Shown here: one piece after another, positions 3,228 through 24,561 of the stretch
How the letters are laid out: every line of letters starts with the position of its first letter
Position numbering within the stretch: position 1 is the stretch's first letter
From: a virus
Direction: 5' to 3' (one strand)
DNA: 64,000 nucleotides
IMG/VR virus record: IMGVR_UViG_3300039159_000275
Span: 4,389-68,388 of that record
Translations under genes and position numbers: made by a program
Notes under the pieces: model-generated
The model's database searches: none
What the model saw: only the letters and a program-made list of their open reading frames with translations
What the model was told of the DNA's origin: nothing

Positions 3228-3243
3228 TGATTTATCATTATTT

Positions 3244-4401: not shown

Positions 4402-4405
4402 ATGT

Positions 4406-5308: not shown

Positions 5309-5466
5309 AATTTTATTTAAAATGTTTTGAAATAGTCGAAATTTTTCTCATCTTTGAAAAATTCCAATACTTGTTTAACATATATACGAAATTGTTTCTT
5401 ATATTTATAATGCGTGTCAAAGTCCGTCGTTTTTGGCCATCATGACTTTTTTACTATATTTTTGTG

Positions 5467-6534
5467 TTATTTTAATAAAGATACATTGCGAAGTTCTTGT
5501 AATGATCTTTGATAAGAATCATCAATTTTTAAATCTAAAGAAGTTATCCAATTAACATAATCTATTAAACCTGTTTCTAAAGAAACTTTTGGTACAAAAT
5601 TTAACTCATTCTTAATTTTTGTAATGTCTGCAACGTTATGTTTAATATCTCCTTTACGTACTTCATTATTTATTTTAATTTTAGAAGTTGAAGAATATAA
5701 ATTTCTTAATAGCTCTGCTAAATTTAAAATCTCTGTGCTAGTACCTGAACCAACATTATAAGTTTGAGAATTAGCAACAGGTTGCATTGCTAAAATTAAT
5801 GAATCAACAACATCTGAAACATGTATAAAATCTCTTGTCATTTTGCCGTCTTCAAAAATAAAAACATCTTTTTGAAATAAAAATTGTTTTGAAAAAATTG
5901 ATAATATACCAGTATAAGGATTATTCAAACTTTGATATCGACCATACACATTTTGAAAACGTAAAATAGTGTAATCAATTTTATCTGTTAATAAAATTTT
6001 AAAAAGATACTCTTGATATAATTTATTTGCAGCATAAATTGATAATGGAGATACTTTATCCGTTTCAAGTGATGGTACTATTTTCCCATTTACAATATTA
6101 GCATCGCCATAAACTGCTCGACTGGACGCTAAGATAATTTTATCAGGTGCTAATGTTGGATGTTTTAAATAAAAATTTAAAACATCTGCAGTACCATCAA
6201 TATTTGTGTTGTGATATTTAGACAATTCATACATTGATTGACCTGTACCAGTTTCTGCAGCTAAATGATAAATAATATCAAATTTAAATCTTTCTTTCCA
6301 CAATGTTATTCGATCCTGATTGTAATTTATAACATCCGTTTTAAGAAATTTAAGAGGATATTTGGAATTTATAAATGAATTTAAAAATTGATATGAATAT
6401 GAACTTAAAACATTTGTACCATGAATTTGTGGATTTAAATTATCAATAACCCAAACTTCATGATTTTGTTCTAACAATTTCTTTACAAGATTAACTCCAA
6501 TAAAACCTGCGCCGCCGGTTATTAAAATTTTCAT
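5467..6534 (-). CDS. NAD-dependent nucleotide-sugar epimerase/dehydratase
   Basis: ILITGGAGFIG, HLAAETGTGQSM, YAANK, RFQNVYG, TRDFIHVSDV (extended SDR). Confidence 0.92.
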   Translation of the reverse strand: MKILITGGAGFIGVNLVKKLLEQNHEVWVIDNLNPQIHGTNVLSSYSYQFLNSFINSKYPLKFLKTDVINYNQDRITLWKERFKFDIIYHLAAETGTGQSMYELSKYHNTNIDGTADVLNFYLKHPTLAPDKIILASSRAVYGDANIVNGKIVPSLETDKVSPLSIYAANKLYQEYLFKILLTDKIDYTILRFQNVYGRYQSLNNPYTGILSIFSKQFLFQKDVFIFEDGKMTRDFIHVSDVVDSLILAMQPVANSQTYNVGSGTSTEILNLAELLRNLYSSTSKIKINNEVRKGDIKHNVADITKIKNELNFVPKVSLETGLIDYVNWITSLDLKIDDSYQRSLQELRNVSLLK

Positions 6535-7226
6535 TTCTTTACAAAGTACGCTAATTTATTTGGACCATATATTGTTTCAGGTAATGTAAACATTTCAGCG
6601 TGTGTAATGTTGTCTGTTAAATATTGATTCTCATCAGCTGTTAAAAACTCAGATGATGATATTTGTGTATCAACAATACGTTGTAAAAAATCATAAGTAG
6701 TGTTAGTGCGTTTTTCATTAATATCTAAAGTTGTTCCATATAAATCTTTAAAATCATTAATTGGCCAAAAAGAAGTATGTAAATCTTCAACCCAATATTG
6801 ACCATTAGATTTTAAAAATGAAAACAATGTGCCAAAACTTACTTGTTGTTGTTGCATCATATGACCACCATCATCAATGATAATATCAAAAGCAGTATTT
6901 GCTTTTTCAAGAAACTGTTGTAAGCTTTCCCTACTAGATTGATCGGCAATATATGTTGTTACTTTATCATTATTCAAATATGTATAATTTTCAATATCAA
7001 TAGCGTGGATTGTTGCATTTGGAAAATAATCATACCACATTTTTAAAGACGGTCCACCACCAATACCAATTTCTAAAAATGTAATTGCTTGATTTCTAAT
7101 TGCTTCAAATGTTTTTTCATATTGTGTTGTGAAATGTAAACGGGGACCATGATGTTTACCATCTTGAGGAATTTCAGTACCTTTATCTGAAGCATATTTA
7201 TTTGCAAGTTGTGTTAAAGTCATCAT
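6531..7226 (-). CDS. class I SAM-dependent (sugar O-)methyltransferase
   Basis: SDKG N-terminus, FLEIGIGGGPSLKMW, FDIIIDDGGH, YWVEDL, as in MycE-like sugar O-methyltransferases. Confidence 0.8.
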   Translation of the reverse strand: MMTLTQLANKYASDKGTEIPQDGKHHGPRLHFTTQYEKTFEAIRNQAITFLEIGIGGGPSLKMWYDYFPNATIHAIDIENYTYLNNDKVTTYIADQSSRESLQQFLEKANTAFDIIIDDGGHMMQQQQVSFGTLFSFLKSNGQYWVEDLHTSFWPINDFKDLYGTTLDINEKRTNTTYDFLQRIVDTQISSSEFLTADENQYLTDNITHAEMFTLPETIYGPNKLAYFVKK

Positions 7227-7918
7227 ACGTATTTATATTTTATATTTTGATCAATTTTGTAATTGTATTTATTCAAACAATAATCAATTTCTTTTTTTCT
7301 TAATTCTGTTGTTGCAAGCGTATTTGTTACACTATTAGGCCACATTCTGATACTAACATAAGTATTATCTGAAATTGAAACAGGTTCACCATATTTATGA
7401 AATAACGTGTAAGCTATTTCGCAATCATTCATCCAAATTAAATTATCATCGAAAAAATTATTATCATTTTTAAAAAACATAACTGAAGGAGCACCTATTG
7501 TGTTTTTCGCAGTAATAATTTCATCAGCATAAGAAGGTGTCATGTTTCTATAAAAAGAAGTACCCATTTGATCTGTATGATTAAAATTAAAAAAACCCCA
7601 ATCCATTTTTATTTTTTCTAAAGCATGTTCATTATAAAAGAAATCATCTTGATGCATTATTTTAATATATTCACCTTTTGCGTGTAAAATTGCATTATTC
7701 ATATTGTTAGATGAATTACCAATCTTTTCAAGATTACGATAATATTTAATATTACTATTTTTACAAACATTGAAGATTATATCTGATTTAGAATGATCTG
7801 ATATAATAATTTCATAATCTTTTTCTGATTGATTGTTAATTGTGTTCAAAAGAACTTTTAAATATTTGTCACCAACACCATTCATTTCATAAGTTGGAAT
7901 ACATATTGAAGTTTTCAT
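7223..7918 (-). CDS. glycosyltransferase family 2
   Basis: SICIPTYE, YEIIISDHS, IKIMHQDD (GT-A fold). Confidence 0.88.
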   Translation of the reverse strand: MKTSICIPTYEMNGVGDKYLKVLLNTINNQSEKDYEIIISDHSKSDIIFNVCKNSNIKYYRNLEKIGNSSNNMNNAILHAKGEYIKIMHQDDFFYNEHALEKIKMDWGFFNFNHTDQMGTSFYRNMTPSYADEIITAKNTIGAPSVMFFKNDNNFFDDNLIWMNDCEIAYTLFHKYGEPVSISDNTYVSIRMWPNSVTNTLATTELRKKEIDYCLNKYNYKIDQNIKYKYV

Positions 7919-8699
7919 TAGTTATTTCTAATATTTTTTCTTTTAAACGTTTATTATAATCCATATAATATAACGCAGTTTGATAATTTTCTTCAATTGC
8001 AACAATTCGATTATTATAGTCAAATTCCGTCAATTTGTTTACTTTATCAAAACATTCTTCTATAGTATTAAAACAAATTATACCATCAATATTAAAATAA
8101 TTTGAAATATTTTCACATCCCCAATAAATAGGTATAGTTTTAGTTAAAAAACAATCTATTATTTTTTCAGTAAACCAATTTTTAATATTTACATTTTCAA
8201 CACATATATGAAACATTGAATCATTAAAAAGTATAATTTTATCATTTGGTAAATTTCCAATATACTTTTTATATTGATTTGGTATAGGTAAATTAGAACT
8301 ATTATAAAATTCAGTTTTAATTTTAAAAAGATTTTCTGAATGCCAAATTTTTGATCTTAATATGTGACCATTTGTTTTTGATTTAGAGTTACATAACATT
8401 GTAACTTTTAGTTTTTTTTCTATAGAATTTGGATTAACAAATGAAGATCCAAATTCAAATAACACACTATTATTACATTTAGATAAAATATTTTCTGACC
8501 ATGTTAAAATAAAATCATAATATTTATGATTTTCATAAACTTTTTCAAATTGTAAACCTATTTCAGGAGGTTCAATTATTAATAATATTTTAATACCATC
8601 AAAATGTGGTAAATGATAACTGTCAATAACAAGTAATGTTGGTTTTAAAACATTAAATAGAGGTAAATGTACAGTGTTATTAATTATATTAATGTTCAT
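7887..8699 (-). CDS. GT10-like (alpha-1,3-fucosyltransferase-type) glycosyltransferase
   Basis: MFHICVEN...WFTEKIIDCFLTKTIPIYWG matches the GT10 signature; probable ATG at 8699. Confidence 0.8.
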   Translation of the reverse strand: MNINIINNTVHLPLFNVLKPTLLVIDSYHLPHFDGIKILLIIEPPEIGLQFEKVYENHKYYDFILTWSENILSKCNNSVLFEFGSSFVNPNSIEKKLKVTMLCNSKSKTNGHILRSKIWHSENLFKIKTEFYNSSNLPIPNQYKKYIGNLPNDKIILFNDSMFHICVENVNIKNWFTEKIIDCFLTKTIPIYWGCENISNYFNIDGIICFNTIEECFDKVNKLTEFDYNNRIVAIEENYQTALYYMDYNKRLKEKILEITNENFNMYSNL

Positions 8700-9475
8700 A
8701 TTATAATCCAATTATCGCAATAAATATCTTTGGTTTCTAAGTGATTTAAATTAGGACCAAACCATTTTTTCGGAGCTATTATTTTTTTGTTTTCAGATTC
8801 AGATAACCAAGCACCCCACCAAGAAAAAGTTGAATTTGAAATAATAAAATTTTTCATTTTTGACATTAAATAAATTTCACAATAATCTTTTTCTTCAATA
8901 AATTCAAATTTACCTTTAATAAAGTTTTGCTTACACCATTCTATATCGGAAGAAAAAACAACATACTTATTATTAAAATCAAAATAAGACATTGCATTGT
9001 TAAAATAATCCATGTCCATAACAACATGATTATTTTGATCATTTAAATAATCTCCTCTTCTAACATGAATAACTGTTCTATTATACAAATGAGAATATTT
9101 TTTATCTAATTCTGTCCTAATATTTAATGGTAAGTCAAAAAGATTTAAAATATCTTTTCGATATTTTTTAAAATATTTTTCAGATTGAAAATAACCGATA
9201 TATTGAGCATCTTTAATATATTCTATATTTTGAAATCCCCACTCTATATTTTTTATAGAGTGAAGTGTTATATCAGATTTTTTAAATTTATCAAAAAATA
9301 TTGAAAATTCTCTAGCATGAGAAACATCCCATCTTTTATCTGATAATAATTCATTATATCTTTTTTCTATATTTAATAAAACTAATTCATCAACATTTTG
9401 AGTTGCTAATGCATACATACTTGCTATTTGAAAAAGCATATTTCCAAGACCTCCAATTGGATATAGATATATCAT
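8696..9475 (-). CDS. GT11 alpha-1,2-fucosyl/colitosyltransferase
   Basis: GGLGNMLFQ, GYFQSEKYF, IHVRRGDY, IISNSTFSWWGAWL, APKKWF. Confidence 0.93.
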   Translation of the reverse strand: MIYLYPIGGLGNMLFQIASMYALATQNVDELVLLNIEKRYNELLSDKRWDVSHAREFSIFFDKFKKSDITLHSIKNIEWGFQNIEYIKDAQYIGYFQSEKYFKKYRKDILNLFDLPLNIRTELDKKYSHLYNRTVIHVRRGDYLNDQNNHVVMDMDYFNNAMSYFDFNNKYVVFSSDIEWCKQNFIKGKFEFIEEKDYCEIYLMSKMKNFIISNSTFSWWGAWLSESENKKIIAPKKWFGPNLNHLETKDIYCDNWIII

Positions 9476-9812: not shown

Positions 9813-10889
9813 ATGAACATTTTTCATAATACAAACGTAATTCTAGTATATGGCAATTCTGGCAACGGTAAAACAACTACAGCTATAAAAATAAAAGATT
9901 TAGATCAATATAATAAAGTTATTCATACTGATGGGATTTTTCTATATGAAAATTCACCGCAGCTTATAGATCTATATTTTAAATCAAATCAAGATGTTAG
10001 TTGTGCTGCTAGATCAGAGGAATTTTTATATTATAAACATATTTACATTTTTGCTATTATACAGGAAATAGAACAAATATTAAAATCAACATCTTATGTT
10101 TCAAATATTATAATCGAAGGATATGCATTAATGTTTTGTTTAAAAGAAATAACAGATTTTTTTAATAAAAGAGATTTAAGAATATATTTATTAGAAATGA
10201 TAAATTTTAATATTTTCATAGATCAAAAAGAAATTACATTTAATGAATTTCAAAATGTTTTATACAGTAAAGAAGTATTAAACAAATCAAATTATCAAAG
10301 TTTTGATTTTTTAAATGATATTGTAAAAGACAGTTCATCTTTAAATAAATTTATTTTGTCTGGTTTAGATAAAATAAATCTAAATGATAAAGTATTAGTA
10401 GATTTTGGTTGTAATTGTGGATATTTTTTATTTAAATTGAAGGATAAAAACTGTAAATTGATTGGTGTTGATGTATCTAAAGATGTATTAAAAATAGCAT
10501 ATGATATAAATAGAAGCTTTATAAAAACTGATAATATTACATTGTATAATATGTCATGTTTTGATTTTACAGAAAAAGTAAATGTTGTTTTTGCTGCTTC
10601 AATGTTTCATTATCTGATTGATCAACAACAACAATTTATTGATCATTGTTATAATATATTAAACATTAATGGTATTCTATTATTAGAAATAGAAGAACAC
10701 ACTGATAATGAGAATATTAACACATTTAAAATAGCTAGAAGAGATGGTGAATCTTGTTTAAATTATCCAAACGAAAAAAAAATTCATCAAATGATTCATC
10801 GAAAGTTTTATGTTAAAAGCAAAACCATTTCTTCACATCAATCCGGAAGTTTTTTTAATAGATATTTTTACCATTTAATAAAATTATAA
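9813..10889 (+). CDS. P-loop kinase-like domain fused to a class I SAM methyltransferase
   Basis: N-terminal YGNSGNGKTT Walker A; C-terminal LVDFGCNCGYF and IGVDVS. Confidence 0.75.
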   Translation: MNIFHNTNVILVYGNSGNGKTTTAIKIKDLDQYNKVIHTDGIFLYENSPQLIDLYFKSNQDVSCAARSEEFLYYKHIYIFAIIQEIEQILKSTSYVSNIIIEGYALMFCLKEITDFFNKRDLRIYLLEMINFNIFIDQKEITFNEFQNVLYSKEVLNKSNYQSFDFLNDIVKDSSSLNKFILSGLDKINLNDKVLVDFGCNCGYFLFKLKDKNCKLIGVDVSKDVLKIAYDINRSFIKTDNITLYNMSCFDFTEKVNVVFAASMFHYLIDQQQQFIDHCYNILNINGILLLEIEEHTDNENINTFKIARRDGESCLNYPNEKKIHQMIHRKFYVKSKTISSHQSGSFFNRYFYHLIKL

Positions 10890-10903
10890 AACAATAATAA
10901 TTA

Positions 10904-11554
10904 ATGTTACTAAAAGAATATTTTGATCATATTTACTGTATAAATTTAGACAGAAGACCGGATAAATGGAAAAACTGTTTACTTGAATTTGAAAAACACG
11001 ATATAGTAGTAGAACGAATTACTGCTATTGATGGAAATCCAAATAATGAAATAAAAAACGAAATAAAAGAACCATATGTTTATAAACCTGGAATAATAGG
11101 TTGTGCATTATCACATTTAAAAATAGTTAAAGATGCATTAGAAAATAATTATAAAAATATTTTAATATTAGAAGATGATATAGTATTTGAAGAAGAAGTT
11201 AATTATAAATTTTCGGAATATATCAATAAAATACCATTAGATTGGCAACTTTTATATTTTGGCGGAAATCATTTAGGAGAACATTTTACTGAAATAAATG
11301 ATAATGTTTTTAAAATAACTAACACATATACAACACATTGTATTGGTATGAAAAATGAATTTTTTAAAAAATTCATTGCTCGTGTGGAATTATCAATCGA
11401 TTATCCAATTGATGTTATATATGCAGAGTTACAAAAATCAAATTCTGCATATTGCTTTAAACCACATTTAGCATGGCAAAGAAAAGGTTTTTCTGATATT
11501 GATAATGCATATGTTGATTATGATATAATTATAAAAGAATTTAAAGCTAATTAA
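10904..11554 (+). CDS. glycosyltransferase family 25
   Basis: IYCINLDRRPDKW, ITAIDG, GCALSH, ILILEDD. Confidence 0.9.
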   Translation: MLLKEYFDHIYCINLDRRPDKWKNCLLEFEKHDIVVERITAIDGNPNNEIKNEIKEPYVYKPGIIGCALSHLKIVKDALENNYKNILILEDDIVFEEEVNYKFSEYINKIPLDWQLLYFGGNHLGEHFTEINDNVFKITNTYTTHCIGMKNEFFKKFIARVELSIDYPIDVIYAELQKSNSAYCFKPHLAWQRKGFSDIDNAYVDYDIIIKEFKAN

Positions 11555-11559
11555 AAAAT

Positions 11560-12384
11560 ATGTATTATTTACAAACAATATTTGCACCCAATAATAACCA
11601 ATTAAATAGAAATATTGCATCAATTAAAAGTCTTGATGCATATTTGAAAAAATATCCATATCCAGTTATTTTAATATGTGGTGGTTGGTGTGAATCCGAA
11701 GAATATTGGGATAAAATCATTACATGTTTAAATGAAACAACAAGCTTTAAAAGTCATTATTTTAAATTTAATGAAAATAAAGGAAAATCCTTTACAATTA
11801 ATTTTTTGTTTGATAATTTTTTAAAATCAAGTTCTGAAAAATATTTTTTAACTGCTGATTCAGACATATGTTTTGATTTAAATGTTTATAATTTTTTTGA
11901 ACGATTAGAAGAAGCTCCTAAACATATAGAAAGAATAACAAATAAATCTTTTGGTATGATAGCATTAAATCAAACACAAATGAGCTGTCATGTTTATGAA
12001 AATTTAAAAATAAATCATGAGTACAGCAATTCATTTAATGAAGAAGAAATAATCATTTCTTCTTCTAATACATCAGGTATAGCAGGTGGTTGCTTATACA
12101 CATCAACTGCTGCTTGGAAAAAAATAAACGGATATAGATTAATTCACATTTATGGTGGAGACGATGGCTATTATGCATATGACAATTATGTAAATAACTT
12201 TAGTTGTGATGTATTATTAACATTGTCAATTATACATCCTTTTGATACAGATAAAGATTATCAACAATGGAAAAGCGATCAAATTAAAATGATTCAAAAT
12301 GCTGGTGGACATAATAGATTAGTTGATGAATATTTAAAAAGTAATATAATTTCAACTGATTTTTGGAAAAATAAACCTAAATAA
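11560..12384 (+). CDS. putative GT-A fold glycosyltransferase
   Basis: ENKGKS, FLTADSD (DxD), AGGCL...WKKINGY...YGGDDG. Confidence 0.65.
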   Translation: MYYLQTIFAPNNNQLNRNIASIKSLDAYLKKYPYPVILICGGWCESEEYWDKIITCLNETTSFKSHYFKFNENKGKSFTINFLFDNFLKSSSEKYFLTADSDICFDLNVYNFFERLEEAPKHIERITNKSFGMIALNQTQMSCHVYENLKINHEYSNSFNEEEIIISSSNTSGIAGGCLYTSTAAWKKINGYRLIHIYGGDDGYYAYDNYVNNFSCDVLLTLSIIHPFDTDKDYQQWKSDQIKMIQNAGGHNRLVDEYLKSNIISTDFWKNKPK

Positions 12385-12421
12385 TAATTTTACAAAGACT
12401 ATAAAAACAAATAGATAATTG

Positions 12422-14491
12422 ATGCGACTATGTCTTTTTTCAAGTTATTCAGAAAAGAACACTATTGACAATTATATAAAATATTATATTAAAGAACTAA
12501 GTAATCATTTTGATAAGATTATTTTTATTACTAATCATCGTCAAATAGATATAGAAGATACTAAGTTTTTAAATGAAAATAATATCGTTTTAAAGTTAGT
12601 TGAAAATAAAGGTTATGACTTTGGTATGTATTATCATGTGATTAAAGATTTAGATGTTAAAGACATTCAAATATTAGGATTGGTTAATGATAGTTGTATT
12701 CTTTTTAAACGTTTAGATAATTTTTTTACATGGTTTAACAATCAGAAAATAGATTTAGGTGGATTTACTGATTCAATTACATATCAAAAACATATTCAAT
12801 CATATTTTTGGGTCTTTAAGAAAAGAGTTATTCATTTTGTAAAAGACTATTTTCTTAAACATGGTATTATTGAAAATGTTGCTGATTTAATTCTAACATA
12901 TGAATTAGGTTTTTGTAAGCATTTATTGGATAACGATTTTAAAATAGCTGCATTATATAATCAAAAACTGTTTGATAATTATGATGGAAATATGTCAACT
13001 GAGATAGTTGAAAAACTTTTAGAAAAAGGTATTCCTTTAATTAAAAGAAAAGTTATTTATAAACATTTTAGAGCAGACGAAGTTTCTTATTTACAACATA
13101 AAAATATTGATTTTAATAAAGATTATAAAACATTGCTTTATTTATATGGTGATAAACCCATTTTAGATTATGTTCTGCAATCCCATCGTTTAAAAATTTA
13201 TCAAATTTATTATGATGTTGAACAGATTAAACAACTTTCACCAAACACAATGCCTTTTTATAACTCAAAATTGTCAGTATATTTTGAAAATGATTTATTA
13301 AAAGATTTTTATTACAATAATAAAATAGATTCAGATTATTTTGGCATTTTATCCTGGAGATTTAATTCTAAAAATGGTTTTACATTTTCACCAGAAATGA
13401 TAGACGGTGATTATGATGCATATGTTTTTGAAGGATTAATACAATCACATGATGTTTTTTATGACTCTGTTAGATGTCATCCATATTTCATGGACATATT
13501 TAAAAAAGTGTTACAGCATCTTAAAATAGATGTAACAATTAAACCAATGTTGGGGTTATATCAAAATTCAATTATTGCAAAGCAATCTGTTTTTAAAAAA
13601 TATATGGAAGAATATTTACTTCCAACAATGGATTTTTTAAACAATATGGATAAGAAATTTCCAGAATTAAATCAAAAGCTTTGGGCAGATGCTAAATATA
13701 AATATGATCCAGCTTTAACCGAAAGATTACATCAACAAACTGGTAAACCATATTACACTTATCATACGTTTATTTGTGAACGTCTTTGGTCAGTATATTG
13801 TTTAGTTAATGATTTAAAATTAAAAATTGTAACAACAAATAATAAAACATCACTAATATCATTAGTTCAAGGAAAGTCTGCTCCATTACTATATGTTGAA
13901 ACTGGATCTATTGTAGAAGAAATTAAAAAACCTATAACAATTCATTCGCCTACTATCATAGATAAAACAAAGGAACATGCTATTTGCATTTTTCATACAT
14001 CGGATTGTCATAGTTTAGAAAAAATAAATCAACAAAACACAATATACGATTTTTATTTAACATCATTTGATAATTTAGATATTTCAAAATGGCATAAATC
14101 ATTTAAAAAACATAAAATAATGTCTCAAAATATTATAGCAGATGTTGAATCAAGAATCACTAAACAGAGTCTAGCAAATGTATATGCAGCAAGTGCTGTT
14201 AGTCAATTAATTATTGAACAAGAAAACATTTCTAAACAAAAGTATAAAACTATAGTAATGTGTAGCAGTTTATCTGGTCTTGGCAATTTAATAGATTTTC
14301 ATAAATTGAAAATGAATACTAACACAATATATGTTAAAAAAGGAAATCAAAAATATTGGTTTGGAAAAGCTGATGTAATGTCTGTTTTTGTTAATTTTTT
14401 TACAGAACATAAATTTTTCTCAGATGGAGCTATTGAAGAAATTATTGTTCAATTTGCTTTAAGAAGAAATATAAAAATTATTGAATGTTAA
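12422..14491 (+). CDS. multidomain glycan-synthesis protein with an RgpF-like N-terminal domain
   Basis: VENKGYDFGMY, LVNDS, HIQSYF, YELGF resemble rhamnan synthesis F-like domains; second domain KIYQIYY...TFICERL. Confidence 0.6.
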   Translation: MRLCLFSSYSEKNTIDNYIKYYIKELSNHFDKIIFITNHRQIDIEDTKFLNENNIVLKLVENKGYDFGMYYHVIKDLDVKDIQILGLVNDSCILFKRLDNFFTWFNNQKIDLGGFTDSITYQKHIQSYFWVFKKRVIHFVKDYFLKHGIIENVADLILTYELGFCKHLLDNDFKIAALYNQKLFDNYDGNMSTEIVEKLLEKGIPLIKRKVIYKHFRADEVSYLQHKNIDFNKDYKTLLYLYGDKPILDYVLQSHRLKIYQIYYDVEQIKQLSPNTMPFYNSKLSVYFENDLLKDFYYNNKIDSDYFGILSWRFNSKNGFTFSPEMIDGDYDAYVFEGLIQSHDVFYDSVRCHPYFMDIFKKVLQHLKIDVTIKPMLGLYQNSIIAKQSVFKKYMEEYLLPTMDFLNNMDKKFPELNQKLWADAKYKYDPALTERLHQQTGKPYYTYHTFICERLWSVYCLVNDLKLKIVTTNNKTSLISLVQGKSAPLLYVETGSIVEEIKKPITIHSPTIIDKTKEHAICIFHTSDCHSLEKINQQNTIYDFYLTSFDNLDISKWHKSFKKHKIMSQNIIADVESRITKQSLANVYAASAVSQLIIEQENISKQKYKTIVMCSSLSGLGNLIDFHKLKMNTNTIYVKKGNQKYWFGKADVMSVFVNFFTEHKFFSDGAIEEIIVQFALRRNIKIIEC

Positions 14492-15366
14492 AAAATATTA
14501 TGAAAGTTTTAATAGGTTGTATTTTTTTTAGAGATTATACTGGCTCAGAGCTATACGTTTATGAGTTAGCAATTAAATTAATAACATTGGGTTGTGAAGT
14601 ACATGTTATAACAGCTCATTTGGGTGGACCTTTGACTGATCAAGCAATTAAAAATGGCATATATGTACACCATTTATCAAATGCACCTGATATTGAATTT
14701 GATATAATTCATACTCAGCATGTACCAATTACTGAAAATTTAATAGCAATATATCCAAACATTCCTAAAATAACAACAATTCATTCCGAAATTATTGATT
14801 TGGAAAGACCTGTTCTTCATCCAACTATACATCGATTTATAGCAATTAGACCTGAAATAAAAGAGTATTTAAAAAACTTTAACATACTTCAAGAAAATAT
14901 TCAAGTCATTTATAACCCAATTGATGAAACAAGATTCTTTAAAAAAGAATTACCATCTGAGAATTTTATATTATTTGTTGGCTCTTTAGAAAGTTTAAGA
15001 AGAAATGCTATATTTGAAACGTCTAAATATGCAGAAGAAAATGGTAAAGAACTTTGGATAGTTGGAAAGAATCATTCAAATTATTTAAACGAGTTGTTGC
15101 AAAAACAACATGTTAAATTTATAAACGTAGTACAAAATGTTGAAGAATATGTTCATCGTTGTGATGAAACATCTGGAATATTATTAGGAAGAACAACCAT
15201 TGAAGGTTGGATGTGTAATAAACCAGGTTGGATATATTCGGTTAATTCTCAAGGTGCTATTTTAGATAAACAAAAATATGAAGTTCCTTTAGATGTTGAA
15301 AAATATCACGCGATAAATGTAGCAAAATCAATTAAAAAAATATATGAAGAAGTAATTTTATTATGA
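14485..15366 (+). CDS. GT4-like (GT-B fold) glycosyltransferase
   Basis: TGSELYVYELA, DIIHTQH, VIYNPIDETRF, ILFVGSL, GRTTIEG; start may be ATG 14500. Confidence 0.8.
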   Translation: MLKNIMKVLIGCIFFRDYTGSELYVYELAIKLITLGCEVHVITAHLGGPLTDQAIKNGIYVHHLSNAPDIEFDIIHTQHVPITENLIAIYPNIPKITTIHSEIIDLERPVLHPTIHRFIAIRPEIKEYLKNFNILQENIQVIYNPIDETRFFKKELPSENFILFVGSLESLRRNAIFETSKYAEENGKELWIVGKNHSNYLNELLQKQHVKFINVVQNVEEYVHRCDETSGILLGRTTIEGWMCNKPGWIYSVNSQGAILDKQKYEVPLDVEKYHAINVAKSIKKIYEEVILL

Positions 15367-16076
15367 TTATTTTAACAACACTTTATAATTGTGAAACATA
15401 TATCGAAAGAGCTCTTAAAACTATAAAGTCTCAAACATATACTAATTTCAAATGTTATATTTTAGATGATTTATCAACTGATAATTCAGTGCGTGTAGCA
15501 AAAGCATTTATACAAAATGATGATCGTTTTATTTTAGTAACAAATACTGTTAAAATGTATCAACCTGGTAATTATGATCAAATTATTAGAAATTTATCAA
15601 ATGATGAAATTTGCGTAGAAGTTGATGGTGATGATTATTTACCAGACAATCAAGTTTTTGAAAGAATTAAAAAAGTTTATGATGATCAGTCTATTTGGCT
15701 AGCAAATGGTAATTTTATTTATCATGATGGTAGACAAGGTTTTGCAAAAGAACCATCATCGTTTGAAAACATTAGAAATTTAGTGCCATTTTCTTTATCA
15801 CATATTAGAACGTGGAAAGCTTTTTTATGGAATAAAATTCGTCAAGAAGATTTAAAAGATTCGATAGGTAACTATTGGCAAGTGGCAGGTGATTTAGCTT
15901 TTATGTTTCCAATGTTTGAAATGGCTGGACGAGAACATTATAAATTCCTACAAGAGATTAATTATATTTACAATGAGGCCAATCCATTAAATGATCATAA
16001 AGTCAATATGACAAATGTTAATCGAATAGTTTCAATAATTAGAAACATGCCTCCTTATCAAAAACTTGTGTTATAA
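15363..16076 (+). CDS. glycosyltransferase family 2
   Basis: TTLYNCETYIERAL, ILDDLSTDNS, VEVDGDD. Confidence 0.9.
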   Translation: MIILTTLYNCETYIERALKTIKSQTYTNFKCYILDDLSTDNSVRVAKAFIQNDDRFILVTNTVKMYQPGNYDQIIRNLSNDEICVEVDGDDYLPDNQVFERIKKVYDDQSIWLANGNFIYHDGRQGFAKEPSSFENIRNLVPFSLSHIRTWKAFLWNKIRQEDLKDSIGNYWQVAGDLAFMFPMFEMAGREHYKFLQEINYIYNEANPLNDHKVNMTNVNRIVSIIRNMPPYQKLVL

Positions 16077-16403
16077 TTTTTTAATCTCACTTTCATAATT
16101 ATATTTGTTTAAAAATTAATTTATGATATACAAGTTAATACGATTATAATTGTTCTTTAAATAAACACTAAACTTAATGGCAAAAACAGAAAAACAAAAC
16201 TTTTCGGAAGTGACTACACAAGACCTAAAAAAGGTGCACCAAAAGTAAGACCAGCACATCAACAACCAAAGAAGTAATGCAAGACCTTCTATAACTCATT
16301 GATTATCAAATATTTAAATTTTTATTTGAAATATGTCAAGGAAATGGCTAATTTGACAAAAATTTGTATTATATTAGCATAATTATTTAACCATTTGAAT
16401 TCT

Positions 16404-18254
16404 ATGACAGATTACGAACAACATACAGAACAGGAACTTTTGGACCTCTATAATCAAGCTAAAGAAGCTTATTATGGTACAGAAGAACCAATCATGACAG
16501 ATGTTGAATTTGATAATTTAGAACAATATTTAATCGCAGAATACGATCTGCAAAAGCATGTTGGAATGCTTACTGAAACAGGTAAAAAAATTAAACATTG
16601 GAATCAAATGCTATCACTTGCTAAAGTGAAAATTGGTGATGATGGTTTTACAGACGAAAATAAAGTTGCTTTAGAAAAACATCTTAAAAGTAGTAACGAT
16701 ATTATAAATTATCGAATTTCGGTAAAGCTTGATGGTTTAGCAATGGATTGTTCTTATTCAAAAGGAAAACTTTTAACAATTGCAACTCGCGGAACTGGTG
16801 AACAAGGTGCAGATGTTACTGAAAAATTCCGTTCAAGAGTTCCTGAAACAATCGATATAAAAGATGACATTTCAATTCGAGTTGAATGTTGTATGTCAAA
16901 ACAAAATTTTGAAAAACATTACGCATCACAATATACACATGCCAGAAATCTTGTATCTGGTATTAAAAACGATTTAAATCCAAATGATCCACGATTGAAG
17001 CATGTAGACTTAATAGCAGTTGATGCAATTTATCGAAATGGAATTGTTGTTTCTTTTGATGATATTAAAAAAAACACTGGTTTCCAAATTGTTGAATTTG
17101 TAACATTTAACAATTTTTCAGAAATTAAAAAAATATACGAAGATTTTAACAAGAGAAGATCTTCTATAGATTATCCAAATGATGGTCTTGTTGTTTTTCG
17201 TAACATCTTAAATGAAATACGAACACATAATGGTCATGATCCAAAAGATGTTATTGCAATTAAATTTCCACCAGAAAAATTTACAACAACTGTTAAAGGT
17301 ATTTATTGGGCACTTTCAAAACATGGAAAATATATTCCAGTTGTTTTATTGAATCCAGTTCGTATCGATGGTCGAATGATTGGAAAAGTTTCAGGATATA
17401 ATTATAGTAACGTTAAATCGTTGGGTATCTCTATAGGAGCAATTGTTGAAATCGCAATCATGGGAGATATTATTCCAGCTGTTAAATCAGTTATTAAACC
17501 ATCAACAGTTGAATTAACAATACCTTTAGATGCAGTTGTTGATGGAGTACATTTAAAAGCAACCGGATCAGAAGAAAAAATGCACCGCGCAAGATTTATT
17601 GCTGGTGTAATAACTTTAGAATTTGATGGAATAGGTAGTTCAGGTGTTGGAAATCTTTTTGATACTATTTCAAATAAAGGTATAAAAGATTTTGATTACA
17701 CCGAAATCTTCAAACCATACGTTGATGAAAATTATTTGCTTTGCATTGGTAATTCTGCTTCAAAAAAGATGTTTAAAAGAATACTTGCAATTAAAAAAGA
17801 AGGAATTCAACTTCGTAAAGTTATTCAAGCACTTGGTTTAACAGGTCTTGGTGAAAGCATGTCTATTCAAGTAGCAAGATATTATTCAAATTTAGAACCA
17901 GATTGGTTTGGTTTAGAAAAGAAAATCATTGAATCTTCATGTAATGGTGAATATTCAATTGCAATTAATAAAGCAATCAACAGTTTAAAAGCATCGGCTG
18001 TGATTTTACATCTCGAAGAAGAGAAAAAAGTAATTGCAAACGAATTTAGATATATGCTTACAGGTTCTCCAAAGAACTTTGGTTTCAAAACAAAAGAAGA
18101 ATTCAAATCAACATTACCATCAAATTGGGTTGAAGTAGATAATTTAAAACAAGCACATATGCTTATTACAGATGATATGGCTTCAATATCATCAAAAATG
18201 AAATCAGCACAGCAATTAAAATTAAAAATACAAACATATGGAGACAAAAATTAA
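16404..18254 (+). CDS. ligA: NAD-dependent DNA ligase
   Basis: YY...PIMTDVEFD, MLSLAK, KLDGLA adenylation motif, TRGTGEQGADVT, DGLV, IAIKFPP, GDIIP, C-terminal BRCT-like LTGS; no obvious C4 zinc finger. Confidence 0.93.
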   Translation: MTDYEQHTEQELLDLYNQAKEAYYGTEEPIMTDVEFDNLEQYLIAEYDLQKHVGMLTETGKKIKHWNQMLSLAKVKIGDDGFTDENKVALEKHLKSSNDIINYRISVKLDGLAMDCSYSKGKLLTIATRGTGEQGADVTEKFRSRVPETIDIKDDISIRVECCMSKQNFEKHYASQYTHARNLVSGIKNDLNPNDPRLKHVDLIAVDAIYRNGIVVSFDDIKKNTGFQIVEFVTFNNFSEIKKIYEDFNKRRSSIDYPNDGLVVFRNILNEIRTHNGHDPKDVIAIKFPPEKFTTTVKGIYWALSKHGKYIPVVLLNPVRIDGRMIGKVSGYNYSNVKSLGISIGAIVEIAIMGDIIPAVKSVIKPSTVELTIPLDAVVDGVHLKATGSEEKMHRARFIAGVITLEFDGIGSSGVGNLFDTISNKGIKDFDYTEIFKPYVDENYLLCIGNSASKKMFKRILAIKKEGIQLRKVIQALGLTGLGESMSIQVARYYSNLEPDWFGLEKKIIESSCNGEYSIAINKAINSLKASAVILHLEEEKKVIANEFRYMLTGSPKNFGFKTKEEFKSTLPSNWVEVDNLKQAHMLITDDMASISSKMKSAQQLKLKIQTYGDKN

Positions 18255-18389: not shown

Positions 18390-19529
18390 ATGGCAGATAT
18401 AACAGTAATGAAAATTGGTAATCATACCGTAGATTTTTCAAAAGAACAAAATCACAATGCTGAAGAAATCAAAGATTTGATAAAACTATTAGCATCAAAT
18501 AAAGAAAACACCATTCGTTATTACGGCAAAATCAGAGGTAAATTTGACAATGCGCCGTCCAATGTTTTATTACACGATATTGTTAAACCAGAATTTTCAA
18601 ATGCTTCTTTAACTGGCTTAATAGGGCCTCCAATTTTAGATAATGTTTTTTTAATAAATTCTTCGATTAATTTCTTTGGTGGTAAAGACGATCCTTATAC
18701 TTTAAAGACTTTTGATTTAGTTACACATGCTAAAAAAATTACTTTCTATTTTGTTGATTCATTATTAGGTTTTCATACAGATTTGGATATTTCTAAAAGA
18801 GATTGGAAAGATAAATATTCCGATTTACAATTACATGTTCCAGAACAAATTGTAAAAGCAATTACTCATTATTACGATTTTGATGCAGCTCTTAAAAAGA
18901 TTCAAAAAACAAAACGTGATAAAAAATCAATACCTTATTTTACAAAAGATTCAATTCAACATTTTCCAATGTATAAATGGCATTATTTATTAATGCCAGA
19001 AAAAGAAATTAAAGACATATTAAAATACGATCTAACATTTGGTGGTAATCCAAGACACAAACTAAGATTAAATGCAATCGATAAATTTTTACTATCTGCT
19101 AAAAATGTAAATGTTGATTTATTTGGTTCATGTACACCGGAACATTTTAATAAAACTGCTGAAGATATTTCAACAAATGTTAAATTTAACGGTACTATTA
19201 CTTTCAATGAATTAATTGAAAACTATAGCAGTAGCGTTGCAACGGTTTTATTGGCCGATTTAGATTCTGATAAAATGTTTACTGGTAGAATTGGTCATTC
19301 TCCTTTAGCAGGAGTTCCTTTATTGGTTGAACAATCATGTGATCCTAAAAGAATGTTATTTGGTGATATGAATGTTTATTTTACAACCGTTGAAGAATTA
19401 GAAAAATTAACAATTGAATTAAAAAATAATTTAACATATAGAAGAGAAATTGTTGAAAAACAAAGAGCTCTTGTAAAATACACTTGGCAGGAATTAAGAG
19501 AATTTTTTGAAAATGTTATATTAAAATAA
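18390..19529 (+). CDS. bgt: T4 DNA beta-glucosyltransferase homologue
   Basis: INSSINFFGGK matches T4 BGT VNSSINFFGGK as recalled; FYFVD (catalytic Asp region), FGGNPRHKLR (T4 YGGSFRSGQR), VKFNG, TGR and LTYRREIVEKQ are colinear with BGT. Confidence 0.85.
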   Translation: MADITVMKIGNHTVDFSKEQNHNAEEIKDLIKLLASNKENTIRYYGKIRGKFDNAPSNVLLHDIVKPEFSNASLTGLIGPPILDNVFLINSSINFFGGKDDPYTLKTFDLVTHAKKITFYFVDSLLGFHTDLDISKRDWKDKYSDLQLHVPEQIVKAITHYYDFDAALKKIQKTKRDKKSIPYFTKDSIQHFPMYKWHYLLMPEKEIKDILKYDLTFGGNPRHKLRLNAIDKFLLSAKNVNVDLFGSCTPEHFNKTAEDISTNVKFNGTITFNELIENYSSSVATVLLADLDSDKMFTGRIGHSPLAGVPLLVEQSCDPKRMLFGDMNVYFTTVEELEKLTIELKNNLTYRREIVEKQRALVKYTWQELREFFENVILK

Positions 19530-19670
19530 GATACAGAAATTAATCAATAATGTATAAATCACTCACTGTAATCGCGTTAGGTCTATTTAATATTATGCAT
19601 GCTGTACATCATAGAAAACATGCTAAAAAAGACATTAAAAAACCATAACTTAATATCATAACTTAATACC

Positions 19671-19898
19671 ATGCTAAAAAAATTATTAATTGATAACGTT
19701 TCAACCGATTTTTTACTTGGTGTATTATGTTTAATGCTTCTTATAATATCAATATACATTCTATATAAGGTAATTCAAAATGTTAAATGGTGGAATAGAT
19801 CAAAAAAATATGTTAAAGAAAAAATGAAACTAAATGATCTTGTTTACATATCAACATATGAAAAGATTTGGAAATTTATCTGCTGTAATGTTAGATAA
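19671..19898 (+). CDS. small membrane protein
   Basis: 75 aa with one hydrophobic helix (FLLGVLCLMLLIISIYILY). Confidence 0.5.
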   Translation: MLKKLLIDNVSTDFLLGVLCLMLLIISIYILYKVIQNVKWWNRSKKYVKEKMKLNDLVYISTYEKIWKFICCNVR

Positions 19899-20013
19899 TC
19901 ATGGACCAAATATAGCATTTCATCACTCAATTGATCCTTTAGAAGTTATTTCATTTATTGAAGAGAACTTTAATTTATCAGATAAAACAAGTGGATTAGT
20001 AATTTTAAAATAA
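19888..20013 (+). CDS. 41-aa ORF or C-terminal gene remnant
   Basis: MLDNHGPNIAFHHSIDPLEVISFIEENFNLSDKTSGLVILK; the frame is open a few codons upstream of the ATG. Confidence 0.35.
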   Translation: MLDNHGPNIAFHHSIDPLEVISFIEENFNLSDKTSGLVILK

Positions 20014-20025
20014 ATCTTAAATCTT

Positions 20026-21213
20026 ATGAATATTATAAAAAATGTAAATGATCTTGATAAAAAATATGATTTTATTGTGATAGGTGCTGGTTTATCCAGT
20101 TCTGTTTTTGTTTCATTAGCAAAAGAAAAATATAAAATTTTAATAATTGAAAAACAATCAGTAATTGGAGGAAATTTAAGAACTGATAATATTGAAGGTG
20201 TTCAAGTTCATATGAAAGGTGCACATTTGATGCATCATAATAGTGATGAAATTCAGAAATTTTTGGAAAAACATTGTGAATGGGAAAATTATACTCATAA
20301 TGTTGTAGCTGAAACTGGCAATGAAATGGTGCAGTTACCATTTAATCTAATGACTTTTAGACAATTGTTTAAAGATTGTGTAAGTATTTCAGATATTAAA
20401 AACAGAATTGATTTAGAAATAAAAGAATATGGATTAATAAATCAACCATTAAATTTAGAAGAACAAGCAATATCAATGGTAGGTACAACTATTTACAATA
20501 AATTGATTAAAGGATATACCGAAAAGCAATGGGGTAAAAAATGTACAGATTTGCCGGCTAATATTATTAAAAGATTACCTTTAAGATTTAATTTTGATAA
20601 TACTTATTTTAATGAAGCCAAATATCAAATTTTACCTAAAGATGGTAGTTATACAAATTTTATACAAAATATGCTTCAATCTGAGGAAAATGTTGATATT
20701 TTATTAAATTATAATTGGAATATAAATGATAAAAATTTATTATTAAAAAATAATTTAAAAGAAAATGGAAAAGTGATATATTCCGGTCCTATTGATGAAC
20801 TTTTAAATTATGAATATGGATATTTAGAATATAGATCATTACAATTTGATATTGAAGTACATAAAAACACAGATAATTATCAAGGTAATAGTGTTGTAAA
20901 TTACACAAATTCAAATGTTAAATATACTAGAATAATAGAACATAATCATTTTAAACCAAACATTAAAAACAGATACGCAGTAACAACAACTGAATATCCT
21001 ATTGATTACATTCCAAATGTAACAGAACCATATTATCCAATATCAGATGATCGCAATAAAGAATTATATAAAAAATATCAAAAATTAGCATTAGAAAAAT
21101 TTCCTAACACTGTAATTATTGGTAGATTGGGTCTTTATGTTTATATTGATATGCATCAATGTATTAATATGACATTAAAAACAACCGAAAAAATTCTTAA
21201 TGAATATAATTGA
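20026..21213 (+). CDS. glf: UDP-galactopyranose mutase
   Basis: IVIGAGLS FAD motif, IGGN, GAHLMH, KGYTEKQWG, RLPLRFNFDNTYF, LEYRSL, YTRIIEH, EPYYP, GRLGLYVYIDMHQ. Confidence 0.95.
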   Translation: MNIIKNVNDLDKKYDFIVIGAGLSSSVFVSLAKEKYKILIIEKQSVIGGNLRTDNIEGVQVHMKGAHLMHHNSDEIQKFLEKHCEWENYTHNVVAETGNEMVQLPFNLMTFRQLFKDCVSISDIKNRIDLEIKEYGLINQPLNLEEQAISMVGTTIYNKLIKGYTEKQWGKKCTDLPANIIKRLPLRFNFDNTYFNEAKYQILPKDGSYTNFIQNMLQSEENVDILLNYNWNINDKNLLLKNNLKENGKVIYSGPIDELLNYEYGYLEYRSLQFDIEVHKNTDNYQGNSVVNYTNSNVKYTRIIEHNHFKPNIKNRYAVTTTEYPIDYIPNVTEPYYPISDDRNKELYKKYQKLALEKFPNTVIIGRLGLYVYIDMHQCINMTLKTTEKILNEYN

Positions 21214-21525: not shown

Positions 21526-22077
21526 ATGAAAAATGTGTTTGTGTGGCTCGAAGACTTAAAGAAAAACTTAAGTTTCGAGATTGATCAAGAGGCTTTAAAA
21601 GCCGACTTGAAAGTGTTTAATGAACGCTTAAGTAAAGTGAAAGATTTTAATGACTTCTCAGCTTTAGAGAAAGAAGTAATTGAAAAGGGCACTATGACTT
21701 TTGCAACTTCAATTGATGGAAAAACGTGTGTCTTTAAAGAATTTAAAATTTTGGTTCACAATGCTGGTGAGTCAAAATTTTCAATAGATCACGCTATGTC
21801 GCAATTAAATCCTGAAGATGTAATTCGTTATAGTATTTACGATTACAAAGTAATCAGGATTCGTACGCGTATGTGCGATGTTAATTCGTTAAAGAAAAGT
21901 TTGAAACTTGTTCCACACGATTTAACATACTATAAAAAGTATGTTGAAGAAATTATTTCTCAATTAACAGCAAAATTGAATGAGGCTACAAGCCGAACCA
22001 ATGATGATAAATATAAGAACAGTATGGTGGAAAGAACCAACAAACTTTTAGAAAGAGCAAAAGCATTGCTAAGCTAA
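21526..22077 (+). CDS. hypothetical protein
   Basis: 183-aa ORF with its own promoter-like elements and terminator. Confidence 0.75.
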   Translation: MKNVFVWLEDLKKNLSFEIDQEALKADLKVFNERLSKVKDFNDFSALEKEVIEKGTMTFATSIDGKTCVFKEFKILVHNAGESKFSIDHAMSQLNPEDVIRYSIYDYKVIRIRTRMCDVNSLKKSLKLVPHDLTYYKKYVEEIISQLTAKLNEATSRTNDDKYKNSMVERTNKLLERAKALLS

Positions 22078-22716: not shown

Positions 22717-24561
22717 ATGAGTAAAAGTTATGTTATCGGAATCGATTTAGGAACAACAAATTCGGCAGTTGCAATAATGGAAGCAGGTGCACCTGTTGTA
22801 ATAGCCAATTCTGAAGGTAGAAGAACAACGCCATCAATTATTTCATTTGATGCAAAGTCGGGTGAAAGAAAAGTTGGTGATGCTGCAAAAAGACAATCAA
22901 TTGTAAATGCTGTTAATACTATTAATAGTATCAAGAGATTTATGGGTCGTAAATATGATGCTGTAAAAAATGAACTTGACAAAGTTACTTATAAAGTAGA
23001 AAAGTCTGGTGATAATCCAGTTGTTCGTATTAATGATCGTACATATACTCCGCAAGAATTATCTGCAAGTATTTTACAAAAAATGAAACAAACTGCTGAA
23101 GATTATCTTGGTCAAACAGTTACACAAGCAGTTATTACAGTTCCTGCATATTTTGATGATGCTGCTAGAACAGCTACTAAAGAAGCTGGAGCAATTGCGG
23201 GTTTAGAAGTTCTTAGAATTATTAATGAGCCAACAGCAGCAGCATTAGCTTATGGTCTTGATAAAATGTCTAAGAATCAAAAGATTGTTGTGTTTGATAC
23301 AGGTGGTGGTACTCATGATGTTTCGCTACTTGAATTAGGAGATGGTGTATTTGAAGTACTTGCAACTGCTGGAGATAATCATTTAGGAGGAGACGATTTT
23401 GATAATAAAATTATTGATTGGATTATTGATGAATTTAAAAAAGATACTACTTTTGATTTAAGAAAAGATCCACAAGCTTATCAAAGAGTTCGTGAAGCTT
23501 CTGAAAAAGCAAAGATAGAATTATCAAGTTCATCACAAACAGAAATTAATTTACCATATGTTTGTCAAATTGATAGTGTGCCACAACATCTTGTTAAAAA
23601 TTTAACAAAAGCAAAGTTTGAGCAATTAACTGCTGATTTAGTTGATAGAACAATTAAACCATGTGAAGAAATCTTAAAAGCTGCTAATATCACAATTGAT
23701 AAAATCGATGAAATTATTTTAGTTGGTGGATCAACCCGTATTCCAATCATTCGCGAAAAAGTAAAAGAATTTTTTAAGAAAGAACCAAATAAATCAGTTA
23801 ACCCTGATGAGGCAGTGGCAATAGGAGCAGCCGTTCAAGGAGCTGTATTATCAGGTGACATTAAGGACGTTTTATTATTAGATGTAACTCCAATCAGTTT
23901 AGGTATTGAAACACTTGGTGGTGTATTCACTAAGCTAATTGATGCTAATACAACAATTCCAACAAAAAAGACAGAAACATTCTCAACTGCATCTGATAAT
24001 CAACCATCAGTTGAAATAAATGTTTTACAAGGAGAACGTGTAATGGCAAAAGATAATAAAACTCTTGGAAGATTTCATTTAGATGGCATTCCACCAGCAC
24101 CTCGTGGAACTGTTCAAGTTGAAGTAACTTTTGATATTGATGCTAATGGTATTTTATCAGTAAGTGCAAAAGATAAAGGAACAGGAAAAGAACAAAGAAT
24201 TCGAATTGAAGGTTCTTCTTCTTTAACAAAAGAAGAAATCGAAAGAATGAAAGCAGAAGCAGAACAAAACGCAGATGCAGATAAAATTGAAAAGGATAAA
24301 ATTGATAAAATCAATTCTGCTGATTCTTTAGCTTTTACAACTGAAAAGTTTGTAACAGAAAACGGAGATAAGATAGATGCTGCTGATAAAACGAGTTTAG
24401 AAGAAAAGATTCAAACTTTGAAAAATGCTTTACAAGTTAAAGACATAACTCAAATTGAAACTGCAACATCCGAACTTCAAGCATTAATGCAAACAGTTGC
24501 TACAAAATTATATGCAAATGATGCAACCAATGTTCCTCCAATGGATGCATCTTCCAATTAA
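22717..24561 (+). CDS. dnaK: Hsp70 chaperone DnaK
   Basis: [57 protein letters not shown]. Confidence 0.98.

Follow-up and report, generated by a model that had tools for sequence, protein, structure and literature searches.

A divergent homologue of T4 beta-glucosyltransferase beside an apparently strain-specific UDP-galactopyranose mutase gene in a huge AT-rich phage

Introduction

A stretch of viral DNA of 64,000 nucleotides (positions 4,389 to 68,388 of IMG/VR record IMGVR_UViG_3300039159_000275; this whole stretch is called the window below) encodes a homologue of the beta-glucosyltransferase (BGT) of phage T4 and, shortly behind it on the same strand, a UDP-galactopyranose mutase (Glf). 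The locus raises the question of whether the two genes work together, Glf supplying a furanose donor that the BGT-like enzyme places on phage DNA, as an earlier note on this DNA had proposed. The answer that we favour, tentatively, is that they are two separate genes which are neighbours by chance in this strain, one for a variant DNA glycosyltransferase and one for a Glf that is strain-specific and more probably has its role in the making of glycans.

Results

The BGT-like protein keeps the catalytic residues of its family and has lost an aromatic-Glu pair

The two genes in question are as follows (aa, amino acids).

18390..19529, plus strand: divergent T4 beta-glucosyltransferase homologue (BGT, GT63), 379 aa; PF09198, PHROG 7922, 1bgt
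20026..21213, plus strand: UDP-galactopyranose mutase (Glf), 395 aa; PF03275, TIGR00031, 1i8t

We found that PF09198 (T4-Gluco-transf) matches residues 84-184 of the BGT-like protein at 36.4 bits (cut-off 27), that PHROG 7922 ('beta-glucosyltransferase') matches residues 80-369 with an E value of 5.6e-25, and that the T4 BGT structure 1bgt (chain 60-335) aligns with residues 84-366 with an E value of 8.2e-18, which bears out the BGT homologue that the earlier note had placed at 18390-19529. The protein is about 25% identical to T4 BGT. An AlphaFold2 model based on the family alignment (pLDDT 91.0, pTM 0.88) shows strand and helix elements that alternate along the chain. The family is small: among 1.84 billion representative proteins, only 107 relatives reach an E value of 1e-3 or lower; one of these is close (90% identity) and the others are at most 30% identical, save for a fragment of 127 aa.

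The BGT-like protein contains NSSINFFGGK, and the NSSINFFGG loop is the same as that of T4. In the 1bgt alignment, D123 is paired with T4 D100, the two Arg of T4 'GGSFRSGQR' correspond to R222 and R226, and the Arg of T4 'RVWE' corresponds to R300; the latter motif reads 'RIGH' in the BGT-like protein. We take T4 D100 to be catalytic, R191, R195 and R269 to be diphosphate-binding, and Glu272 to be a ligand of the UDP ribose, with the W271-E272 pair taking part in UDP binding; a literature search for the roles of Asp100 and Glu272 of T4 BGT found nothing. Residues were counted column by column in 110 sequences, namely the window protein and all 109 family proteins collected.

T4 D100 column, window D123: D in 103, E in 1 of 110
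T4 R191 column, window R222: R in 106 of 110
T4 R195 column, window R226: R in 105, K in 4 of 110
T4 R269 column, window R300: R in 107 of 110
T4 W271 column, window G302: Y in 70, W in 11, F in 8, A in 5, G in 4 of 110
T4 E272 column, window H303: E in 98, H in 4, Q in 2, A in 2, D in 1, gaps in 3 of 110

G302-H303 replaces the aromatic-Glu pair, and the G and H counts stem solely from the window protein and three close relatives. GRIGH is kept in all four members of this clade, at 68-90% identity, which shows selection on the gene. Taken together, the columns indicate that the earlier note had read the change from RVWE to RIGH correctly, along with the retained loop, Asp and Arg residues. 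The change is specific to this clade and selected, and it affects two positions that are among the most conserved of the family; the exchange of aromatic-Glu for Gly-His suggests that the nucleotide-sugar donor has changed.

The changed pair also bears on the simplest alternative, an ordinary beta-glucosyl-5-hydroxymethylcytosine (hmC) transferase that uses UDP-glucose and in which Gly-His is neutral drift. The family membership and the conserved catalytic and phosphate-binding residues fit such an enzyme. However, the first position is aromatic in 89 of the 110 sequences and the second is Glu in 98, whereas Gly-His is found in the window clade alone and is conserved there at 68-90% identity, and we consider such an ordinary enzyme very unlikely.

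BGT genes of other phages lie near hydroxymethylase-like genes

In six of six other lineages examined, the BGT gene has a ThyA-family hydroxymethylase-like gene nearby, at a distance of 24 bp to 4.7 kb.

Phage T4: b-gt 24400-25455; gene 42, 25479-26219 (24 bp apart)
Ralstonia jumbo phage RsoM2USA: gp2, 1890-3020; ThyA-like gene 7739-8398
Uncultured 462-kb phage LR756500.1: BGT-like gene 149075-150175; ThyA-like gene 151723-152298
IMG/VR genome of 155 kb (G018): BGT-like gene 54576-55502; ThyA-like gene 59541-60227
IMG/VR genome of 368 kb (G019): BGT-like gene 180437-181567; ThyA-like gene 175248-175838
Enterococcus phage nattely: BGT-like gene 32432-33490; ThyA-like gene 31288-31797

The best PDB match of the ThyA-like protein of RsoM2USA is T4 dCMP hydroxymethylase (E 1.5e-22). 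This coupling in six of six lineages is strong support for the view that the BGT family acts on hydroxymethylated pyrimidines in DNA.

The record from which the window comes is 68,388 b long, of which the window is 64 kb, and has no terminal repeats; CheckV estimates its completeness at about 16%, which suggests that it is a piece of a genome several hundred kb in size. A search for a hydroxymethylase, hydroxylase or TET/JBP-like gene elsewhere in the genome, which the earlier note had suggested, came back empty for the part at hand: no match to PF00303 (ThyA), TET/JBP or TAGT was found in the 68-kb record, which extends from the BGT-like gene for 22.8 kb in the upstream and 44.5 kb in the downstream direction, and the rest of the window and the outer 4.4 kb of the record yielded neither a dCTPase or dNMP kinase gene nor a hydroxymethylase or other nucleotide-modifying gene. 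The missing ThyA-type gene weakens a role in DNA modification without removing it, since 84% of the genome is unseen.

The same result is relevant to the possibility that the BGT-like protein has left DNA modification and is a GT-B transferase of a glycan pathway, which would use a protein, lipid-linked or polysaccharide acceptor with or without UDP-galactofuranose (UDP-Galf). A ThyA-family gene within 5 kb is present in six of the seven lineages examined and missing only from that of the BGT-like protein, whose stem branch is long and whose aromatic-Glu pair is lost; its gene also lies next to Glf and 2.3 kb from a glycan cluster of 15 open reading frames (ORFs) described below. However, no non-DNA member of GT63 turned up in the searches made here and none is known to us, the T4-identical NSSINFFGG loop, the catalytic Asp and the three Arg are all kept, a gene of DNA metabolism (DNA ligase) stands between the BGT-like gene and the cluster, and a hydroxymethylase may be encoded elsewhere in a genome of which the record represents only about 16%. 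We regard recruitment to a glycan pathway as unlikely. The BGT-like enzyme probably still modifies DNA, a judgement that spans our favoured explanation, the use of a furanose donor from Glf and the ordinary glucosyltransferase together.

In addition, RsoM2USA and LR756500.1, two jumbo phages that look unrelated, both encode an orthologous dCMP-hydroxymethylase-like protein (mutual E 5e-37) and a full-length BGT-like protein. The RsoM2USA pair lies at 6482-7399 and 11989-13119 in the coordinates of our locus L001, where all features of the stretch are annotated 'hypothetical protein', and the LR756500.1 pair at 12692-13576 and 14992-16248 in those of L004, from a record without annotation. Both phages probably carry glucosyl-hmC DNA.

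Glf lies close behind the BGT-like gene, and the linkage is not supported in relatives

Glf was identified by PF03275 GLF (E 3.6e-62), by PF13450, the N-terminal FAD-binding Rossmann motif (43.9 bits, residues 18-81), by the NCBIfam equivalog TIGR00031 (323.3 bits against a cut-off of 303.75, residues 13-391) and by E. coli Glf 1i8t (E 2.7e-91, residues 14-391). As the earlier note had it, Glf is on the same strand about 500 bp downstream (496 bp), and the BGT-like gene comes directly after a DNA ligase gene. The surrounding features are listed here, GC3 being the GC content at third codon positions.

16395..18254, plus strand: NAD-dependent DNA ligase; PF01653 E 6.8e-24, PF03120 E 1.7e-13, phrog_3869 E 1.1e-100
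19530..20025, plus strand: spacer of 496 bp between the BGT-like gene and Glf, with small ORFs at 19671-19898 (75 aa) and 19834-20013 (59 aa)
21526..22077, plus strand: ORF of 183 aa without family match, GC3 0.30, followed by a strong terminator-like site at 22108-22131
22717..24561, plus strand: DnaK/Hsp70 homologue; nearest named cellular homologues from Bacteroidota, 67-69% identity

No convincing terminator was found in the 19530-20025 spacer; the terminator scan gave only weak 5-bp stems inside genes, and the sole strong intrinsic-terminator-like hairpin of the region is at 22108-22131.

DnaK, which lies 1.5 kb past Glf in the window, served as a marker of whether the contigs of relatives extend beyond the position of Glf. 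Two contigs, of 66,689 and 71,186 b, encode orthologues that fall into the 90% cluster of the BGT-like protein, and a relative with 72% identity comes from a contig of 18,626 b. DnaK orthologues with 89% identity (P0231, 66,689-b contig) and 88% identity (P0232, 71,186-b contig) have the same source as the BGT orthologues. The window Glf forms a singleton 90% cluster. Among the matches listed (the best 120 of 7,835 scored), the best non-self Glf is 47-49% identical and the names are mostly of Bacillales; no Glf more than 49% identical to that of the window is among the matches listed from this collection of 5.8 billion clusters. These look-ups suggest that neither of the two long relative contigs has an orthologous Glf in addition to its BGT and DnaK orthologues, and that Glf is strain-specific.

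The pairing was then sought outside the clade. No BGT-family ORF was found within 10 kb of Glf at any of 40 IMG/VR loci (Glf 38-46% identical; hmmsearch with the family profile), and this profile gave matches only in two jumbo phages and the window. Glf was found in none of the four BGT-bearing genomes (RsoM2USA, LR756500.1 and two from IMG/VR), and BGT in neither of the Glf-bearing T4-like phages Aes012 and FBB1. These results do not support a BGT-Glf linkage that is conserved across related phages, and they speak against the idea in the earlier note that Glf feeds the BGT-like enzyme; a lack of conservation was among the outcomes by which that note would have its idea refuted.

The GC3 of Glf (0.106) is the same as that of its neighbours and of the rest of the phage, and flanking repeats of any meaning, as signs of mobile insertion, were not found around it, so that a gain here and a loss in the relatives are equally possible. 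The 183-aa ORF behind Glf, with a GC3 of 0.30 versus 0.09-0.18 in 22 other genes, is possibly a recent acquisition.

A glycan cluster nearby is a candidate user of UDP-Galf

A glycan-synthesis cluster of 15 ORFs extends from 1611 to 16076 and ends 2.3 kb before the BGT-like gene. Its ORFs are given in their Pfam terms.

1611..9475, minus strand: weak methyltransferase-like ORF, GDP-mannose 4,6-dehydratase, DegT/RfbH-like aminotransferase, GDP-fucose-synthase-like ORF, GalE-like SDR, 231-aa ORF without family match, GT2, GT10-like ORF (below cut-off), GT11
9813..16076, plus strand: methyltransferase, GT25, 274-aa ORF without family match, RgpF-like ORF of 690 aa, GT4, GT2

Six glycosyltransferase-family ORFs are above the Pfam cut-offs (GT2, GT11, GT25, RgpF-like, GT4 and GT2). 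The best NCBIfam matches are gmd (354 bits), GDPFucSynFcl (193.7), RfbH (222.3) and galE (134.1), all under their equivalog cut-offs. Only the ligase and BGT-like genes lie between the cluster and Glf. To describe the BGT-like gene as standing outside this cluster is only narrowly correct: at 16076 the last of the cluster's glycosyltransferases ends, and the ligase directly upstream of the BGT-like gene is the sole gene in the 2.3 kb between. Judged from this proximity, the cluster is a candidate consumer of UDP-Galf.

Viral Glf genes elsewhere

Glf is present in 88 phage records, including 22 of Rhizobium, 5 of Agrobacterium and 19 of Aeromonas. A literature search for galactofuranose and phage hypermodification in one paper yielded PMC13326640 alone. 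In the sections of that paper available to us (Lee et al., NAR 2026, PMC13326640), glycosylated 5-hydroxycytosine (5hoC) is shown in several phages, and the 5hoC synthases are ThyA homologues with Asn at E. coli position 169, while position 177 goes with C or U specificity. The same sections describe DNA of Rhizobium phage RL38J1 with galactose-proximal hexoses and propose that a phage mutase makes the UDP-galactofuranose for its galactosyl-5-hydroxycytosine (PMC13326640), by which the remark in the earlier note that no Galf-DNA had been described is outdated as far as the idea is concerned.

In Aeromonas phage Aes012 and Erwinia phage FBB1, Glf comes right after motA and is followed by a conserved protein of 353-358 aa, phrog_14998.

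Aes012 (L047), 7013-9195: motA-side Glf locus
FBB1 (L048), 6992-9117: motA-side Glf locus

Each of the two phages has a second, divergent ThyA-family gene, and the product of the FBB1 gene matches T4 dCMP hydroxymethylase with an E value of 3.8e-81. The phrog_14998 protein has no Pfam match, and that of Aes012 also has no meaningful PDB sequence match; we consider it a candidate galactofuranosyl-DNA transferase.

The IMG/VR Glf loci were grouped into 17 lineages. A Pfam TAGT match (GT-A) is present in the same record in 12 of the 17, in 8 of them above cut-off, and it is also present in four of the five Glf records with a completeness of 90% or more. The TAGT-like gene lies immediately upstream of Glf in six of the eight over-cut-off lineages (L040, L043, L015, L037, L041 and L042), and in L027 and L023 it lies within 1.6 kb downstream. 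TET/JBP was above cut-off in none of the 17 lineages, and a ThyA homologue, a canonical one, was found in one. Since no known hydroxymethyl-base route is present in those genomes, their glycosyltransferase-Glf pair probably serves another acceptor.

These loci and the linkage results bear on a joint role of the two window genes. Under such a role the BGT-like enzyme would put a furanose from Glf-made UDP-Galf (or UDP-arabinofuranose, UDP-Araf) on hydroxymethyl- or hydroxy-pyrimidines of phage DNA, the Gly-His pair would adapt the donor pocket to the furanose, and the relatives would use a host Glf. In favour of it, both genes are on one strand, a spacer of 496 bp without a strong terminator separates them, and the donor-site change is unique to the window clade. 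DNA glycosylation fed by Glf has been proposed for RL38J1 and the Pootjesviridae in the sections cited (PMC13326640), Glf occurs in the T4-like phages Aes012 and FBB1 beside a divergent ThyA-family gene and without BGT, with Glf in 19 Aeromonas phage records overall, and a glycosyltransferase gene lies directly upstream of Glf in 6 of the 8 over-cut-off TAGT lineages. On the other hand, GRIGH orthologues are on contigs with a DnaK orthologue and no orthologous Glf, and a 90%-identical enzyme should share its donor; BGT is at none of the 40 Glf loci and Glf in none of the four other BGT genomes; the 68-kb record encodes no synthase of a hydroxylated pyrimidine; and the large glycan cluster nearby can account for Glf. 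Such a joint role is doubtful, and with it the reading that the Gly-His clade has been re-tooled for a non-glucose donor that is here UDP-Galf from the phage Glf, with galactofuranosyl-hydroxymethyl (or hydroxy) pyrimidines as the product.

Genome setting

The GC content is 22-30% across the whole window, and the phage has roughly 26% GC. The window encodes a tail sheath of 1,248 aa, a gp32-like ssDNA-binding protein, a sigma factor, an S1-domain protein, an RNase H-like protein and a primase-like protein. A single ORF of 3,868 aa occupies 42888-54494 and is followed by an ORF of 969 aa without Pfam match. Several ORFs of 200-330 aa match one short part of DUF4893 (Pfam) weakly and below threshold, and they look like a multi-copy paralogue family.

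Window, 29525-30520, 30527-31192 and 34268-34930: DUF4893-like ORFs, sub-threshold Pfam match
L005, 2-3831: five DUF4893-like ORFs, sub-threshold Pfam match

The window DnaK is 55-65% identical to the DnaK of five uncultured phages of 484-735 kb (LR745206, LR756501, LR756502, LR756504 and LR756508), and its similarities hint at a Bacteroidota host and at kinship with huge-phage clades. At this distance the five were rejected as comparators; BGT and Glf were found in none of them, and one canonical ThyA in each of the five. One sequencing run shared 7% of the sampled words, and its contigs of 167-239 b are near-identical to the window in seven places, including Glf at 20168-20566. These contigs are of the same phage at low depth, possibly from the source sample, and are silent on relatives, and joints within dnaK come from other organisms. 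No close relative of the BGT-like gene with DNA context was found in IMG/VR (protein and clade alignment scans) or in JGI metagenome contigs (clade alignment).

Discussion

The explanation that we tentatively prefer separates the two genes. The BGT-like protein is a divergent inverting glycosyltransferase of GT63 whose target is most likely still the replicated phage DNA. With a nucleotide sugar as donor, it would glycosylate the hydroxyl group of pyrimidines that are hydroxymethylated (or hydroxylated), and such pyrimidines would come from a ThyA-family enzyme encoded in the unsampled part of the genome (about 84%). D123 would serve as the catalytic base and the three Arg (R222, R226 and R300) would bind the diphosphate, roles that follow those of the T4 residues. 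Glf, to judge from its sequence, would be a functional UDP-galactopyranose mutase and a strain-specific accessory gene, and its UDP-galactofuranose would more probably be used by the adjacent 15-ORF cluster, decorating a virion or cell-envelope glycan. What the analysis shows is the family memberships, the conserved residues, the gene order and the lack of an orthologous Glf in the relatives; that the acceptor is DNA, that the donor has changed and that the cluster consumes UDP-Galf, we infer.

Several points weigh against this explanation. For the BGT-like protein, the 68-kb record has no ThyA-type gene, and in a quick maximum-likelihood tree the stem of the window clade measures 1.92 changes per column and the clade has no resolved placement; given this long stem and the loss of two top-conserved donor-site residues, the acceptor may also have changed. 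For Glf, its absence from the relatives comes from protein-collection look-ups, which depend on what was assembled and in which placement on the same contig was inferred from matching size and source and synteny was assumed, and a xenologous Glf in the relatives could rank below the 120 matches listed. The order of a glycosyltransferase gene and then Glf is usual at other viral Glf loci and parallels the order of the BGT-like gene and Glf here. As to the cluster, no ORF in it was identified as a galactofuranosyltransferase, and an attempt to follow its conservation in relatives by 90% clusters gave, in 10 exact look-ups, nine singletons and one protein absent from the collection; these look-ups are uninformative, because the 89% DnaK orthologue likewise falls in a separate 90% cluster.

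BGT is a standard reagent for the labelling of 5-hmC, and a variant that uses another sugar donor would therefore be a useful tool. If the BGT-like enzyme still modifies DNA, the small GT63 family extends into huge AT-rich phages and includes a natural variant of the donor pocket. If its acceptor is not DNA, it would be, to our knowledge, the first such member of GT63. If instead its donor is UDP-Galf, it would become the first furanose-using enzyme of GT63, and the presence or absence of Glf from strain to strain would reflect a diversification of the DNA sugar coat; it would also directly support furanosyl-hexose DNA, which has been no more than a proposal until now, made for the Pootjesviridae (PMC13326640). 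The novelty of a furanose on this DNA is lowered by that published proposal of Glf-fed DNA glycosylation (PMC13326640), and a GT63 furanosyltransferase shown by experiment would still be notable. More generally, where a large glycan cluster is close by, a homologue of a DNA glycosyltransferase that adjoins a sugar-nucleotide enzyme is insufficient ground for inferring a new DNA modification.

Comparison with known systems

The window protein shares with T4 BGT homology over residues 84-366, an N-terminal domain that aligns with the family, the NSSINFFGG loop, the catalytic Asp and the three Arg, but it is only about 25% identical and has Gly-His for W271-E272. In T4, b-gt adjoins gene 42, whereas the BGT-like gene of the window has no dCMP hydroxymethylase neighbour and sits in a huge AT-rich phage, probably of Bacteroidota. 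The BGT and hydroxymethylase modules of jumbo phages (RsoM2USA gp2/gp10, LR756500.1 and the IMG/VR genomes of 155 and 368 kb) likewise contain full-length BGT-family proteins, and those of RsoM2USA and LR756500.1 can be aligned with 99% of the length of the window protein, at an identity of just 23-24%. In contrast to the window, these modules have the aromatic-Glu pair, a ThyA-family gene 1.5-4.7 kb away and no Glf.

Phage RL38J1 (Pootjesviridae) resembles the window in having a phage Glf in a genome with DNA glycosyltransferases, but in the available sections its transferases have other GT folds (Table 1 of that paper) and are not of the BGT family (PMC13326640). The same sections describe Glf as syntenic across the Pootjesviridae (PMC13326640), whereas the window Glf is missing from the nearest relatives, and it is only 33-35% identical to Pootjesviridae Glf. 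Phages RB69 and DLP3, whose DNA has arabinofuranosyl-5-hydroxycytosine, provide a precedent for a furanose on phage cytosines from a phage-encoded sugar-nucleotide pathway; as far as those sections go, however, this pathway consists of arabinose 5-phosphate isomerase and other enzymes and not of Glf, and these phages are reported to lack BGT homologues (PMC13326640). The Glf and TAGT pairs of small IMG/VR viruses match the window in having a glycosyltransferase gene directly upstream of Glf on the same strand, but their transferase belongs to another family, and its acceptor is probably something other than hydroxymethylated DNA.

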